DNA from: Candidatus Heimdallarchaeota archaeon
GTDB taxonomy: Archaea > Asgardarchaeota > Heimdallarchaeia > JABLTI01
NCBI GenBank assembly: GCA_030614005.1
Contig: JAUWKS010000052.1
Span: 1 to 23,137, forward strand
Reading direction: 5' to 3'
DNA: 23,137 nt
The stretch's first letter is position 1; each line of letters opens with the position of its first letter. A model generated the notes under the pieces. It was given only the letters and a program-made list of their open reading frames with translations. It was not told the origin of the DNA and ran no database searches. Positions 15,323 to 21,396 of the stretch are shown one piece after another. Both the position numbers and the translations under genes were made by a program.

Positions 15323-17167
15323 GTGTCTAATGAAAAAGAACAAAATAATGAAGAAATTTTCGAGGACAATCATTTAGGTGAAGATACAAAAGAGCAATCC
15401 CAAGATGAACATCCTAATGAAAATGAAACCAAAAATGAAATTTCTTGTTCAAATTGTGGAACACTAAATCCGAAGTCAAATCTTTTTTGTAAAAACTGCG
15501 GATCTCCTTTTGTTCAGAAGGTTATTTGCCAACAGTGCAGTTCAGAAATGCCTGTTTATAATTCCTTTTGTTCAAAATGTGGTGGAATCCTAAAACAAAA
15601 TATACCACAAATTCAACAGACACCAGGTACAACACACATACCTCCTCATCCAAGCCAACAACAGATTTTTGATCCACAAAGATACTATGTGTCACCTCCT
15701 TCACCAGGAGAAATGAATGCCCAAGAACAAATACGGTTAGCACGTTATCAAACCTTTAACATAGTAGGTTCAGTTGCAGGATTTCTAATGATTTTTGCGG
15801 GAATTGTTGGTTTGATTGTCTTTATAATAGTGATGGCTTTCTCACCATCTGTTATAAATGAAATATTACTACCAGAAGATAGAGCCTATTATTATGGATC
15901 ACTGGTTGCGATGTTTATCCCTTTGATAATCGGTGTAACAATAGCAGGTATATCGTTGATAATTTATCGGCCTGAAGGAAATGCTTGGAAAGGATTTTAT
16001 TATACTTTGAGGTATCTATTCGTTGGATTTTCAGCTGTTTTAGCTATTTTAATCGTACTCAGTATTGGTTCATGGATATTTTATAACCCCTCAACACCTA
16101 TAAGTGGTTCAATACCATTTTGGTTGTTTGTAATGATTGAAATACCAATTGTTAACTTTCCATTGGTTGCTTTAGTTGTAATAATAATAATGGTATTTCT
16201 ACTTGGTGTTGTTTCTATGGTTATTCCAACATTGATAAGAATAATCAAAAAATATCAAAAAAACAATCAAATTTCAGAAGAAATATCTTTTGATGATAAT
16301 TCAGGCATAGAACCGATTGTTCTCGAATTAGATAAGGAGAAGAAAATTACTGAAGAATCTGATGTTAAATTATCTTTATTAGAAACGAGAAAAGGAGTTT
16401 TGCCAAGTATATTTTATCTTCTAAAAAACAATCCAATAATTGGTTCAATTGAACTATTAGGTGCTTCCTATTTAGTATCAATAATTCTAATTCTTATAAT
16501 GACTCCTTTTATCAATCAAAATACTTCAGGTGGGTCAACACCGGTTGAAGCACCAGATCCTTTTATTACTCTGTTCTCATTGGCTTGGGCAGGTGTTTTT
16601 GAGGAAATTAGTTTCCGTTTGCTAATTATTGGAATACCAATGATTTTCGTTATGCTTACTCGATATTTAATGCAACAACAAAAAAGTAGTATAGAAACTA
16701 TGGAACGAATACCTGCTGACCGAATGAAGGTATTAGATGATACTGAAAAAATAAAGGATTGGCAAATTCTATTTGCAATTAGAGGCAAATATAAGAAAAT
16801 TAGTTACCCAGAATGGACACTTATAATCATTTCATCGACTTTATTTGGATTTGCACATTGGGAGAAATGGACTGGTAGTTGGGGAGCTTGGAAGATCGTT
16901 CAAGCAGGAGTTGCAGGTCTATTTCTAAGTTATGCTTTTGTAAAATACGGTATTGAATCGGCAATATTTATTCATGTAAGCAATAATGTTCTTATTGGTT
17001 TAGCTGTTTTTTCAGGAACAGTAGGTGCTAATTGGATAGCAGGTATCTCAAGCTTTCTTGTTTCTTGTTTGTTTGCTGTTGGTATATTTAAAATCATTAG
17101 TTTTGTAATAAACTTCGCTCTGACATTATACTTTAGGAAAGGTGATAAAAAGAGCCTAAGTTATTAG
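15323..17167 (+). CDS. Double-zinc-ribbon plus CPBP (Abi / type II CAAX-like) intramembrane glutamic protease (GTG start)
   Basis: CSNC/CKNC and CQQC/CSKC ribbons, Pro/Gln linker, several TMs, then CPBP motifs FEEISFR, FGFAH, AIFIHVSNN. Confidence 0.85.
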   Translation: MSNEKEQNNEEIFEDNHLGEDTKEQSQDEHPNENETKNEISCSNCGTLNPKSNLFCKNCGSPFVQKVICQQCSSEMPVYNSFCSKCGGILKQNIPQIQQTPGTTHIPPHPSQQQIFDPQRYYVSPPSPGEMNAQEQIRLARYQTFNIVGSVAGFLMIFAGIVGLIVFIIVMAFSPSVINEILLPEDRAYYYGSLVAMFIPLIIGVTIAGISLIIYRPEGNAWKGFYYTLRYLFVGFSAVLAILIVLSIGSWIFYNPSTPISGSIPFWLFVMIEIPIVNFPLVALVVIIIMVFLLGVVSMVIPTLIRIIKKYQKNNQISEEISFDDNSGIEPIVLELDKEKKITEESDVKLSLLETRKGVLPSIFYLLKNNPIIGSIELLGASYLVSIILILIMTPFINQNTSGGSTPVEAPDPFITLFSLAWAGVFEEISFRLLIIGIPMIFVMLTRYLMQQQKSSIETMERIPADRMKVLDDTEKIKDWQILFAIRGKYKKISYPEWTLIIISSTLFGFAHWEKWTGSWGAWKIVQAGVAGLFLSYAFVKYGIESAIFIHVSNNVLIGLAVFSGTVGANWIAGISSFLVSCLFAVGIFKIISFVINFALTLYFRKGDKKSLSY

Positions 17168-17730: not shown

Positions 17731-18252
17731 TTATTTTGGAATTTTATCAAAGGATAAACGAGCGATTTCGTTGAAAACGAGGTTTACTCCTAAACCATTT
17801 GAAGCAGAGGTTTCAACATAGCGTATTGCATTGTATTGTTTTATTGTTTCTGCAATTACATCTTCATCAAGGAGTTGGTCTCTGGGGAGATCGCTTTTTC
17901 CGCCAACTAGAATAATGGATGTGTTAGAATTTTTATCAACAAAACCATACCATGTTTCTAATCCTTTGACAGAAAGTGCTCTTGTTAAATCGAACATTAA
18001 AATAGCTACTAGTGCTCCTCGAAAATAATTATCGAAAATACCCATCTGTTTGAATTGTTCTTGACCACCGCAATCCCATACCGAAAGTGAAATCTCTCTT
18101 TCTTGGTAGCTCATTTGGTGAATATGAAACCCAACACCGATGGTAAGCTTTGTCGTATCAATAAACTCACCTGTAAGGTATCTTTGAATAAGGGTTGTTT
18201 TTCCAACTCCTCCATCGCCACCAAAAACGACTTTTGCTATGATTTTGCTCAA
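17731..18252 (-). CDS. Rab-like small GTPase (TTG start)
   Basis: G1 GDGGVGKT, G2/RabF1 TIGVGF, G3 WDCGGQEQF, RabF4 YFRGA, RabF5 LMFDLT, G4 variant GGKSD, G5 ETSAS. Confidence 0.9.
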   Translation of the reverse strand: MSKIIAKVVFGGDGGVGKTTLIQRYLTGEFIDTTKLTIGVGFHIHQMSYQEREISLSVWDCGGQEQFKQMGIFDNYFRGALVAILMFDLTRALSVKGLETWYGFVDKNSNTSIILVGGKSDLPRDQLLDEDVIAETIKQYNAIRYVETSASNGLGVNLVFNEIARLSFDKIPK

Positions 18253-18413: not shown

Positions 18414-19217
18414 TTAGTGGATTTTTTCTATTGAAACATTCAATCTATCAAGTATTTTTGACATTTCGGCAATTTCAGTAACGGAGATAACTTTTAGTTT
18501 ATTTCTAAATACACTTGAGTTTAGCTCAGAAGCACTCTTGTATATTTGTCTTCTACGCCATACAGTAGGATCAGGGTGATAGAAGAGAATGGAAAGAGTA
18601 CTTTTGTTTTTATCGGCAACTAAGAAAACATCACCGGCTGGAATCTTTTTACCAATTAATTCTTTAGGTTGTCCATCTTCTAAGAGAGTGAATATTCTTG
18701 GAAGTTTTCCTGAAAAGAGCATGCCCATTTTCTTTGAAAGATCTTGGAGGTTGGCAAATGTTAAATCTTTTTCAGAAGTGATATCTCGAACAATAACTGA
18801 GAAATAGGGTTTAATAAGACCGTAAGCATCAAGAATCTCTCGAGTATAATCTTCTTTAAAGAGTAAAAAGAGAATACACTTTCTTCCATATTCTAAAATT
18901 CTATCATCAGTTGACGCTTCTGCTTCGACATCAAAAGTAATTGCCACTGCACGTAAACTAGGTTCACCCGGAACTGGGAGAGGACCAAATGATTTTTTGT
19001 CATCCATAGTATCAAACATTTGCTTTTTCTTCTCTTCCATAGTCTTTCCTGAGGAACCTTCATCAAGACCTACAATTGTCATACCTTCTACTGCTAATGT
19101 GAGTGTTTGTTCATCAGTTAGTGGAGTATCATTGTATGGGACCGCAGGGCCTGTATCCTCAAAGGTCACAAAAACAATTCCAAGCAAATGCTCCTTTTGT
19201 GATTCAAATCCAATCAT
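18414..19217 (-). CDS. Putative uDENN/longin-like domain fused to a C-terminal gelsolin-like domain
   Basis: aa 11-168: GIVFVTFEDTGP resembles the uDENN/NPRL2-type 'F....GP' opening, and the predicted order is bb-a-bbb-aa. aa 173-260: RIF...GDVFLVAD...WRRRQI...ASEL...KVISVTE...ILDRL follows gelsolin-repeat spacing. Alignment by eye only. Confidence 0.55.
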   Translation of the reverse strand: MIGFESQKEHLLGIVFVTFEDTGPAVPYNDTPLTDEQTLTLAVEGMTIVGLDEGSSGKTMEEKKKQMFDTMDDKKSFGPLPVPGEPSLRAVAITFDVEAEASTDDRILEYGRKCILFLLFKEDYTREILDAYGLIKPYFSVIVRDITSEKDLTFANLQDLSKKMGMLFSGKLPRIFTLLEDGQPKELIGKKIPAGDVFLVADKNKSTLSILFYHPDPTVWRRRQIYKSASELNSSVFRNKLKVISVTEIAEMSKILDRLNVSIEKIH

Positions 19218-19312: not shown

Positions 19313-20293
19313 CTAAACGGATATTATTTCATCAATATTTTTACTTTCTTCAATAAGGTTCTCAATAGCAATTCTTCCTTCTTCGCCTTCTGTGAGGAAA
19401 ATATCCAAAACCATTTCAGCTATTTGTTTTGCTTTTCCAATAGCTCCACCACGTTCCACAAAAAGACAACAAATCTTTTGGTTTCTGGAGACAAGAACCA
19501 TCGAATAATCCCCGACAGTCACAACATCCAAGAAACTGGAATCTTTAAAGAGTGTTCGGGTCATTGAATTTAACGCAGAGAGCAAACCAGTGATAAGAAC
19601 AGCATCTTGAGTATCATCCATAATATTAGAGAATTGAGCATCAAAATCAAGCAAACCATTAACGTCATAAATAAGCACTCTATGAATAGTGACATATTCA
19701 TGATAACCGTCGTAGTGCATAAGTTTTGAAATAAACCAATCGAATCCACGATATATGCCTTCTCCAGTCAAAATAGTGCAGATTTCGAAATGAAAGGAAC
19801 GGGGATCAGTGGGAGAGGAAATTTTTGCTAAATCGAAATAACTCAAAACTTTGCTAAGATTAACTTTATTTTCTGGGCTTTTTTTATTCACTAAGGTAAG
19901 TAAGGGAACATTAGAAGGTATTTTTTCTATTATTCTATGGAAAGGTTCAACAGATTTTCTAAGAGATTCATCGGATTCTCCGTTTAAAACATAGACAATG
20001 CCATCTGCAATTGAAAGAAAATAATCAATTACCTTTTCATCGTTTAAAATCTCTTTTCCAATATCGATGAGTTTAAACCACTCTTGACCATAAGAGATGT
20101 CAATCCAATTGAGAACTGTATCAGGAAAGACTTTGTCTCTGTTTGATGAAAGCAGATAATAAAGAGTAGTTGTTTTTCCGGAACCTTGTTCTCCAATAAG
20201 TAGCACCCAAGGAATTTTATGGTTCTCTTTACTCAAGTAGTTGATAAAGGATTCAATTGCTTTTTTTGGTGCTTTCATATTTAGAACATCCAT
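19313..20293 (-). CDS. Degenerate Arf-like GTPase domain fused to a C-terminal longin-like domain
   Basis: G1 GEQGSGKTT intact; G3 IDIGKE, G4 NKKS and G5 CTI degenerate; Arf-type TGEGIYRGFDWF. C-terminal IHRVLIYD-GLL...DAVLITGLLSAL...LDVVTVGDY longin pattern. Confidence 0.75.
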   Translation of the reverse strand: MDVLNMKAPKKAIESFINYLSKENHKIPWVLLIGEQGSGKTTTLYYLLSSNRDKVFPDTVLNWIDISYGQEWFKLIDIGKEILNDEKVIDYFLSIADGIVYVLNGESDESLRKSVEPFHRIIEKIPSNVPLLTLVNKKSPENKVNLSKVLSYFDLAKISSPTDPRSFHFEICTILTGEGIYRGFDWFISKLMHYDGYHEYVTIHRVLIYDVNGLLDFDAQFSNIMDDTQDAVLITGLLSALNSMTRTLFKDSSFLDVVTVGDYSMVLVSRNQKICCLFVERGGAIGKAKQIAEMVLDIFLTEGEEGRIAIENLIEESKNIDEIISV

Positions 20294-20436: not shown

Positions 20437-21396
20437 CTAAATAGAATCCAATGGGAAATAATTAGAGATAACTTCTTGAAGTGAAATACTTAAACCTTTA
20501 AGATATTGCATTTCAATTGCTTCAAAAATTCTGCTGGAAATAGTTAAAACTCTACTGACAGGATCATTAACGTCGATCAACATGCCCATAACAAAGAGCT
20601 TATTTTTGGTAATCACAAGTTGATAATCTTTCATAATCTCAAGAACAGTGACAGCTTCGTCATAATCTCTCATTTGCTTAGCGAATCGTTCAGTTTCTCT
20701 AATAGATTCACGATAGGCTGTAGCAACATTTGCTTGTTGCGTAGGACTGCCAAAAATACATTGATCTAATTCTTTGCCATTAGAATCAAAGGCAACAGCT
20801 GAAAATATTTTAACATGCCAAGTGGGAATAGCTTGATCTTTGGTACCAATATCAACTAACCAATCCCAAGCAGGAAACAAACCTTCACCTGTAAGAGCAG
20901 AACAACGAAACATGTTAAATGGACGATCAAGACGAATCATTTGTTGAAGATCTAAAGCTTCCATAACTTCTACAGAAGTAGCAGCATCCTCTTTGTCAGA
21001 CTTATTAGCTAAGAAAAGAACAGGTGCATTAGGATCAGTGTTTTCTAAAGTCTCATAGAAAACCTCTTTGGCTAAATTAAATCTTTTTTGATCAGCAGCA
21101 TCAACAACAAAAACAATCGTTTGAGCTTTAGTAACAAACTTCTTCCAAAGGGTCTTGCGAATCGGAGCGTGCCCACCTAAATCCCATACGACAAACTCTA
21201 GTGTTCTATATCTATATACTTCAATATTTACTCCGAATGTTGGTTTTGACAGAGTGTATTCTGATCTTAGTATTCTTCTCACTATTGTTGTTTTTCCTGC
21301 TGCATCTAAGCCTATTATTGCTACATGTTGTTTTGATGATGCATCATCACCTGTTTTTTTCTTGTCGGCGCTGATCAATCTTCGAAGGAAACTCAC
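20437..21396 (-). CDS. Arf/Sar1-like small GTPase fused to a C-terminal longin-like domain (GTG start)
   Basis: N-terminal amphipathic MSFLRRLIS, GLDAAGKTT, PTFGVNIE, WDLGGH, LWKKF, FVVDAAD..RF, NKSD, CSALTGEGL...DWL. About 125-aa C-terminal bb-a-bbb-aa domain. GGAG upstream. Confidence 0.88.
   Translation of the reverse strand: MSFLRRLISADKKKTGDDASSKQHVAIIGLDAAGKTTIVRRILRSEYTLSKPTFGVNIEVYRYRTLEFVVWDLGGHAPIRKTLWKKFVTKAQTIVFVVDAADQKRFNLAKEVFYETLENTDPNAPVLFLANKSDKEDAATSVEVMEALDLQQMIRLDRPFNMFRCSALTGEGLFPAWDWLVDIGTKDQAIPTWHVKIFSAVAFDSNGKELDQCIFGSPTQQANVATAYRESIRETERFAKQMRDYDEAVTVLEIMKDYQLVITKNKLFVMGMLIDVNDPVSRVLTISSRIFEAIEMQYLKGLSISLQEVISNYFPLDSI

Follow-up and report, generated by a model that had tools for sequence, protein, structure and literature searches.

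Longin-Type GAPs and Gelsolin-Type Domains

SMCR8 stimulates GTP hydrolysis by Arf1, and folliculin and NPRL2 that by the Rags, each by means of an arginine finger. For comparison with the protein described below, we take these arginine fingers to be R147 in SMCR8, R164 in FLCN and R78 in NPRL2. The catalytic longin domains of folliculin, GATOR1 and C9orf72-SMCR8 are reported to have a specific GP motif, which opens β-strand 2 or closes the loop that leads into it, and which is reported to be absent from FNIP2, NPRL3, adaptins, TRAPP and DENND proteins (PMC12290439). Heimdallarchaeial longins of the "FLCN/SMCR8-type" with both the GP motif and an Arg finger have also been reported; the description of this Asgard class covers neither partners nor gene neighbourhoods, and whether the partners are ArfR or Rag is stated to be unknown (PMC12290439). 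For the Arf proteins of Asgard archaea, the native GAPs and GEFs are likewise stated to be unknown (PMC11914678), and in a cultured Loki strain the genome layout fails to match GTPases to regulators (PMC10933270).

Gelsolin-type domains are relevant here in two contexts. From Asgard archaea, the proteins ProGel and 1DGelX have been described, which have a single gelsolin/cofilin-type domain of approximately 90 amino acids and for which crystals or assays with actin have been reported (Akil et al., 2020; PMC7444086); a DWG motif is common to ProGel and 2DGel (PMC7444086). The second context is Sec23 of the COPII coat, the gelsolin-like domain of which, as stated in PMC11914678 with reference to Bi et al. 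(2002), provides one of the catalytic residues when GTP hydrolysis by Sar1 is stimulated. The published Asgard Sec23-like proteins are without a gelsolin-like domain (PMC11914678).

The Longin-Gelsolin Gene

The longin-gelsolin (LG) gene is located on the reverse strand at positions 18414–19217 of the window, by which we mean the whole stretch of 23,137 nucleotides of DNA from Candidatus Heimdallarchaeota archaeon that was analysed. The open reading frame starts with ATG and encodes a protein of 267 amino acids, for which 33 close homologs (253–270 aa, 77–94% identity) were found. All of these are annotated as "hypothetical", the majority are labelled Heimdallarchaeota or Asgard, and their alignment has a mean column identity of 87%. 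When 1.84 billion cluster representatives were searched exhaustively, 76 relatives were obtained at E ≤ 1e-3, many of which have a length of about 250 amino acids and align end to end. Judged from the conservation of its sequence, LG is a real gene under selection.

Pfam has no family at E ≤ 1 for LG and none for 39 of its relatives (the Folliculin and NPR2 families are thus absent from all of them), and in a search of the PDB by sequence with the whole protein only weak macrodomain noise (E > 0.1) was obtained. The AlphaFold2 (AF2) model, which was calculated from a 39-sequence alignment and has a mean pLDDT of 83.4, shows two domains, and the AlphaFold DB clusters contain a full-length twin of 256 amino acids (39% identity, TM 0.78). 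The model was compared with 48,161 PDB representatives using VIA-align, a fold scan that is independent of Foldseek. The matches divide cleanly between the two domains, and Foldseek agrees with this division.

The first-pass annotation, made by eye from the letters and the translated reading frames, had proposed that a uDENN/longin domain is here fused to a gelsolin domain. All the strings that it quoted are present in the protein: GIVFVTFEDTGP (aa 13–24), RIFTLL (174–179), GDVFLVAD (195–202), TVWRRRQI (218–225), SASEL (228–232), KVISVTE (242–248) and SKILDRL (253–259), and aa 173–260 indeed correspond to nucleotides 18438–18701, as it had mapped them. More important, the AF2 model and the fold searches show that the N-terminal part is longin-like and that the C-terminal approximately 90 amino acids adopt a gelsolin fold.

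The N-Terminal Longin Domain

The N-terminal domain (aa 11–168; positions 18714–19187, reverse strand) has in the AF2 model the element order β-β-α-β-β-β-α-α, which is the longin topology that had been predicted for exactly these residues. Its top match in the fold scan is a Lokiarchaeal longin (8yqg_B, Z 13.0), followed by a chain of the C9orf72-SMCR8 complex (7o2w_A, Z 11.4), the Lst4 longin (4zy8_C, Z 11.4), a chain of the lysosomal folliculin complex (6nzd_H, Z 10.5) and chains of GATOR1/SEA (Z 9.0–9.3). VAMP7, Sec22, AP sigma and DENND1A have Z scores of about 7–8 and thus stay below the GAP-type longins (Z 9–13). LG therefore resembles in its longin fold, and in its best structural matches, folliculin of the FLCN-FNIP complex, NPRL2 of GATOR1 and SMCR8 of the C9orf72-SMCR8-WDR41 complex. 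It should be noted that this likeness is one of structure and motifs only: similarity to the eukaryotic longin GAPs cannot be detected at the level of sequence, and the profile of the N-terminal domain found no solved longin among the PDB sequences. The neighbours of LG in AlphaFold DB carry the automatic names "Folliculin/SMCR8 longin domain-containing protein", NPR2 and UDENN, and a protein language model led to a cluster in which 19% of the members have PF06218 (score 0.80).

Of the proposed uDENN/longin identity, the longin fold thus stands, but the uDENN of a classical DENN-GEF does not. The likeness of LG to the N-terminal part of the uDENN-DENN-dDENN GEFs of the DENND1 type is weak (Z 7.0 for DENND1A), and the GP motif, which LG has, is reported to be absent from DENND proteins. 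That LG is too short for a tripartite DENN protein had been pointed out correctly: only 99 residues follow the longin domain, and these form the gelsolin fold. Membership of LG in the classical tripartite DENN Rab GEFs was considered and rejected, there being neither a core DENN nor a dDENN. LG differs in the same respect from FLCN, FNIP, SMCR8 and C9orf72, since it has no DENN domain, has a gelsolin-type domain of 90 amino acids instead, and comprises only 267 residues.

The GP Motif and the Arginine Loop

Conservation in the longin domain was assessed with an alignment of 60 N-domains of the LG family. Conserved near the N-terminus are G13, D21, G23 (60/60) and P24 (59/60), and further along the chain G78 (60/60), P79 and P81. 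The residues G23-P24 (positions 19146–19151, reverse strand) open a strand that in the AF2 model comprises residues 23–29, which is β-strand 2, and their position matches that of the GP motif described in PMC12290439. A second conserved site is the loop D104-x-R106…G111-R112 (positions 18882–18908, reverse strand), in which D104 is found in 59, R106 in 58, G111 in 57 and R112 in 51 of the 60 sequences. R106 and R112 are located in the loop between strands 4 and 5, which by longin topology is on the same edge as the loop between strands 1 and 2. This loop is a candidate for the arginine finger, and R106 would then be equivalent to Arg147 of SMCR8.

LG is thus like the longin GAP subunits in having a GP motif before strand 2 and a conserved Arg in a neighbouring loop, and by fold match, GP motif and conserved Arg its longin domain is of the folliculin/SMCR8/NPRL2 "GAP-type". 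There is also a parallel in the paralogs. An LG paralog on another contig of the same genome (C87) has kept the GP motif, and the two arginines are replaced by Glu and Leu. This Arg-less paralog recalls the pairs of catalytic and non-catalytic longins in the eukaryotic complexes, and it is a further likeness to the longin GAP subunits that Arg-bearing and Arg-less forms coexist.

The presence of a GP motif and of a conserved Arg in a longin fold of the GAP type makes a GAP-like regulator likelier than a protein that only binds GTPases passively. On the other hand, regulators of the longin and Roadblock type are for the most part GEFs or scaffolds, and chains of Mon1-Ccz1, TRAPP and Ragulator are also among the fold matches of the N-terminal domain (Z about 7–8). 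LG could therefore be a GEF or a scaffold, its longin domain serving as a platform for exchange or anchoring as in Mon1-Ccz1, TRAPP, DENN proteins and Ragulator, and the arginines having only a structural role; the genomic linkage to GTPases discussed below cannot tell a GAP from a GEF. We nevertheless consider this unlikely. The GP motif is reported to be absent from non-GAP longins (PMC12290439), the longins of GAP complexes are the best structural matches, and the near-invariant D-x-R and G-R, being located in an exposed loop, are consistent with catalysis.

The C-Terminal Gelsolin-Type Domain

The C-terminal domain (aa 172–260; positions 18438–18704, reverse strand) is a single domain of the gelsolin/cofilin type. 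In the AF2 model, strands are found at residues 174–178, 184–187, 197–202, 207–212 and 242–246, a long helix at 219–235 and a short one at 249–258, which is gelsolin topology, a mixed sheet flanked by a long and a short helix. The fold scan gave as the closest match ProGel from Thorarchaeota (7c2f) with Z 10.3 and 2.6 Å rmsd over 86 of 88 aligned residues, with adseverin, gelsolin, villin, fragmin and the Asgard 2DGels at Z 8–9 and the gelsolin-like domain of Sec23 at Z 7.5. Foldseek assigned the gelsolin fold with probability 1.00. A profile of 40 C-domain sequences of the LG family matched ProGel (7c2f_B) over the whole domain length with E 7.9e-6 among 177,635 PDB sequences and found no other credible match; the profile of whole LG matched ProGel with E 4.7e-4. 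Within the same genome, a 1DGelX-like protein encoded on contig C20 is a relative: hhalign aligned its N-terminal domain with the C-domain of LG at a probability of 91.3% (E 9.4e-7), and the HMM of the C-domain recovered the respective open reading frame at E 1.9e-5. With the 2DGel of the same genome the alignment was not significant (hhalign probability 4%). The language-model leads for the gelsolin half point in the same direction, the nearest named clusters carrying PF00626.

The gelsolin pattern that had been seen by eye in aa 173–260 is by these measures beyond chance, and the gelsolin half of LG is homologous to ProGel, which is more than a shared fold. The domain is, however, an unusual member. 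Like ProGel and 1DGelX it is a single domain of about 90 amino acids that has kept the strand-B Asp/Asn, but unlike these it is fused behind a longin domain, lacks the W and the G of the DWG motif, is negative for PF00626 and is very divergent among paralogs. A genome-wide search with PF00626 led to loci on C31 and C20 and not to the LG gene. Only the Asp/Asn of the DWG motif, at D202, is kept (36 of 40 C-domains); W or G was found in none of the 40 at the positions aligned with those of ProGel, which are occupied by L, I or a gap and by mixed residues. Across the paralogs the C-domain is without any invariant column and has a mean identity of 21%, whereas within the orthogroup its mean column identity of 91% is as high as that of the longin domain (87%).

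These properties bear on the proposal, made in the first-pass annotation, that LG couples GTPase signalling to actin. The longin domain would bind a GTPase and the gelsolin domain G- or F-actin, and the state of the GTPase would control actin dynamics or would tether the switch to filaments. Homology of the C-domain to ProGel and 1DGelX, with which actin has been studied (PMC7444086), speaks for such a coupling, as does its being conserved to the same degree as the longin domain within the orthogroup. The lineage also has a canonical actin (found in congeners at E about 1e-134), a 2DGel and 1DGelX-like genes, though canonical actin is absent from the assembly that contains LG. Against it stand the loss of the W and the G that ProGel and 2DGel have kept (PMC7444086) and the failure of the Pfam Gelsolin family to detect the domain. 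Furthermore, no residue is invariant across the paralogs, which is unexpected if all of them bound one strongly conserved ligand, for instance actin. Even for ProGel the Kd for actin is about 337 μM, which is described as little or negligible binding (PMC7444086), and there is neither an actin nor a profilin gene in the neighbourhood of LG. Taken together, a coupling of a GTPase to actin through LG is unlikely, although actin binding is, from the sequence homology, a possible function of the gelsolin domain.

A second precedent is Sec23. LG is like Sec23 in that a gelsolin-fold domain is present in a protein that is tied, in LG by its genomic position, to an Arf/Sar-type GTPase with a DLGGH switch II. 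It differs in being without trunk, β-barrel, zinc-finger and helical domains and in having no Arg in the gelsolin domain that is conserved across the family. That LG is a fragment of Sec23 was rejected, because the other domains of Sec23 are missing and because the match to its gelsolin-like domain (Z 7.5) ranks below those to actin-binding gelsolins. A separate Sec23_trunk-like open reading frame is found elsewhere in the genome, on contig C59. By analogy to Sec23, a contribution of the gelsolin domain of LG to catalysis is possible.

The Neighbouring GTPases

In the window, LG is surrounded by genes for GTPases in the order Arf319–Arf326–LG–Ras173, all on the reverse strand. Arf319 (positions 20437–21396) is an Arf/Sar-like GTPase of 319 amino acids (Pfam Arf, E 1.1e-42) with a C-terminal longin-type domain. 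All its G motifs are kept, invariant being GLDxAGKT, T53, DLGG (with His as the next consensus residue), NKxD and SA, and its switch II, DLGGH, is Sar1-like. The AF2 model (pLDDT 87) shows a G domain, which in the fold search matches Arf6 with Z 26.5 and Sar1 with Z 25.4, followed at residues 197–313 by a domain of the order β-β-α-β-β-β-α-α. Arf326 (positions 19313–20293) is a degenerate Arf-like GTPase of 326 amino acids with a C-terminal extension (Pfam Arf, E 7.1e-15). In the alignment of its orthologs the P-loop and the N-K of G4 are kept and the Asp of G4 is lost. A G domain followed by a longin-type domain, in an active and in a degenerate member, is a layout of neighbours reminiscent of the Rag GTPases. 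Downstream of LG, a Ras/Rab-like small GTPase of 173 amino acids is encoded (Ras173, positions 17731–18252; Pfam Ras, E 5.1e-36), which is conserved at this place only within the own family.

The gaps between the genes at the LG locus are 95–161 bp, a spacing that does not by itself indicate co-transcription, and this counts against the view that LG is a regulator of these GTPases. In a complex prediction with Arf319, Arf326, GTP and LG, a control in which chain 2 was replaced reached a score no lower than that of the complex itself, so that the prediction speaks neither for nor against an interaction.

Distribution and Recurrent Linkage to GTPases

Of the 399 genomes of the phylum, 186 have a match to the whole-protein profile of LG, and so do 80 of the 81 genomes of the class to which the window belongs. 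With the best six candidates per genome scored, some genomes have at least six matches. Outside this class, strong matches were found in only four genomes, the matches elsewhere in the phylum being weak. In the genome from which the window was taken, three paralogs have the longin-gelsolin architecture (C49, C76, C87), and two further relatives consist of the longin only. Architectures vary within the family: there are longin-gelsolin proteins with about 90 extra residues and longin domains combined with V4R or TPR. In other Asgard classes the same type of longin is fused to Ras- or Arf-like G domains without a gelsolin domain; at 12 loci (±1.5 kb) with GP-type longins, in five genomes from outside the class, the C-domain profile found no gelsolin-like domain in or beside the longin.

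The order Arf319–Arf326–LG–Ras173 is kept throughout the own family. Arf326 is found directly upstream of LG in every locus of this family that extends that far and also in a lineage in which the LG homolog is 41% identical; there, too, a pair of long Arf-like genes precedes LG, at a distance of 10 bp. In another family (f6) the arrangement is different: the best LG copy is followed after 0–5 bp by a gene for a Gtr1/RagA GTPase of 313–315 amino acids (Pfam E 1e-32 to 1e-34), a pair that, in a search with the protein P0108, was found in 21 of 22 genomes. P0108 itself, from one metagenome-assembled genome, is a fusion protein of 597 amino acids with longin (1–150), gelsolin (169–267) and Gtr1/RagA GTPase (286–473, E 4.6e-34) in one chain. 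The link between LG and GTPases that had been proposed is thus borne out by conserved synteny, by the RagA-type gene next to LG in family f6 and by one fusion protein, and association with Arf- or Rag-type GTPases is a further property that LG shares with the longin GAP subunits.

This does not mean that LG is always found next to a GTPase. No GTPase neighbours were found for the two other full LG paralogs of the own genome, nor for those LG orthologs that were inspected in a lineage with 48% identity and in families f4, f5 and f7. Since small GTPases are numerous in Asgard genomes (this one has 33 GTPase-like open reading frames), the chance of adjacency is higher, and the adjacency could be incidental. 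LG would then have its function in another place, perhaps that of a signalling adaptor that forms homodimers, with the gelsolin-like domain as no more than a structural or dimerisation module. That two of the three paralogs of the own genome and several orthogroups lack the linkage is in favour of such an explanation. Three different arrangements and a fusion recur in separate lineages, however, and other classes have fusions of this type of longin to G domains, which makes a merely incidental position very unlikely.

LG as a Probable Regulator of Arf/Rag-Like GTPases

On balance, LG is probably a two-domain regulator of the neighbouring long Arf/Rag-like GTPases, and most likely it is the subunit of a GAP that acts by an arginine finger. 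The longin domain of LG would most probably dock on the nucleotide pocket of the active Arf319, which is probably paired with the degenerate Arf326 through the longin-type tails of the two proteins. GTP hydrolysis would then be stimulated by an arginine finger from the D104-x-R106, G111-R112 loop. The ProGel-type domain stands in the place of the eukaryotic DENN domain and may be a partner-specific binding module, either as a second contact to the GTPase pair or as a surface for dimerisation or recruitment. A partner-specific contact is a possible role that fits both the high conservation of this domain within the orthogroup and its divergence between paralogs.

Two general properties of longin proteins count against a GAP. 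Longin domains are more often platforms of GEFs than of GAPs, and the eukaryotic longin GAPs are heterodimers with DENN domains, which are absent from LG.

The two functions discussed for the gelsolin domain could also be combined with a GAP in one bifunctional adaptor: the GAP-type longin would read or reset the nucleotide state of the Arf/Sar-like pair, and the ProGel-type domain would bind actin or would supply a Sec23-like module. We regard such an adaptor as improbable; if it existed, the actin cytoskeleton or a proto-coat would already in a prokaryote be under the direct influence of a small-GTPase switch.

Significance

Both domains of LG have been published, as has the Asgard class of longins with a GP motif. 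Within the literature searched we found no description of a longin-gelsolin fusion, of a paralog family of LG that is near-universal in one class, or of a recurrent pairing or fusion of LG with Arf/Rag-type GTPases. The LG family offers explicit pairings that can be tested, namely with the two Arf-like neighbours, with the RagA-type GTPase in family f6 and within the natural fusion protein, and LG is therewith a concrete, testable candidate regulator for eukaryote-like GTPase switches. In Heimdall-type archaea a gelsolin domain rather than a DENN domain follows a GAP-type longin, and this bears on the origins of the folliculin, GATOR1 and C9orf72 complexes. It also bears on the question of whether gelsolin domains first served GTPases, as in Sec23, or actin.

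Actin, gelsolin-type and Sec23-like proteins

Canonical actin is absent from the 90%-complete assembly (GCA_030614005.1) when the whole assembly is compared with its congeners (L049–L051), the only actin-family genes present being two divergent ones on contigs C82 and C74. Canonical actin (Pfam E about 1e-134) is found in seven of the 10 congeners searched and in the single sister-genus genome, and an eighth congener carries a truncated copy (E 7e-92).

A search of the same genome with a profile of the gelsolin-type C-domain of the longin-gelsolin protein retrieves two further proteins (C20:35274-36302, (+) strand; C110:62811-63572, (-) strand), in which a single N-terminal gelsolin-type domain is followed by a long low-complexity tail (Pro/Gln-rich and Lys-rich) and which resemble the Asgard mini-gelsolin 1DGelX. 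The genome also contains a 525-aa open frame (C59:2735-3331, (+) strand; L052) that matches Pfam Sec23_trunk with an E of 7.6e-10, exceeding the family cut-off. This frame is far shorter than eukaryotic Sec23 and in this matches the published Asgard Sec23-like proteins, which are short and lack the gelsolin domain (PMC11914678 for the missing gelsolin domain).

Arf-like GTPases in the window

The 319-aa Arf-family GTPase (window 20437-21396, (-) strand) has a Sar1-like switch II, DLGG-His, and a residue other than Gly at position 2. C-terminal to the G domain, residues 197–313 are confidently predicted to form a longin-type domain. The layout is loosely reminiscent of the Rag GTPases, except that the G domain belongs to the Arf/Sar type. 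Its 326-aa paralog (window 19313-20293, (-) strand) has the same layout and has kept the P-loop, but the G4 Asp is gone and switch II is degenerate; this protein has the look of a partner to the 319-aa GTPase that is itself non-catalytic.

It should be mentioned that a protein of 614 aa, with zinc-ribbon repeats at its N-terminus and a C-terminal half that is polytopic membrane protein, is encoded at 15323-17167 on the (+) strand. Its position beside the GTPase cluster and the gene for the HycI-like protease is conserved in related genomes, whose counterparts are annotated as DZR/zinc ribbon.

Other longin proteins of the genome

A second longin/GTPase cluster is located at C119:1311-6218 ((+) strand; L055), where the gene for a 362-aa longin-only relative of the longin-gelsolin protein overlaps the 3' end of that for a 194-aa Arf-like GTPase; upstream on the same strand lie the genes for a further Arf-like GTPase and for three proteins that match no Pfam domain family, apart from a weak HTH_20 match in one of them. 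A longin-gelsolin paralog is encoded at C87:24263-25039 (L054:3264-4040; (-) strand), with a weak DUF7379 match in the gene downstream. This paralog retains the GP motif, whereas Glu and Leu replace the two conserved arginines, and it may serve as a partner subunit without catalytic function.
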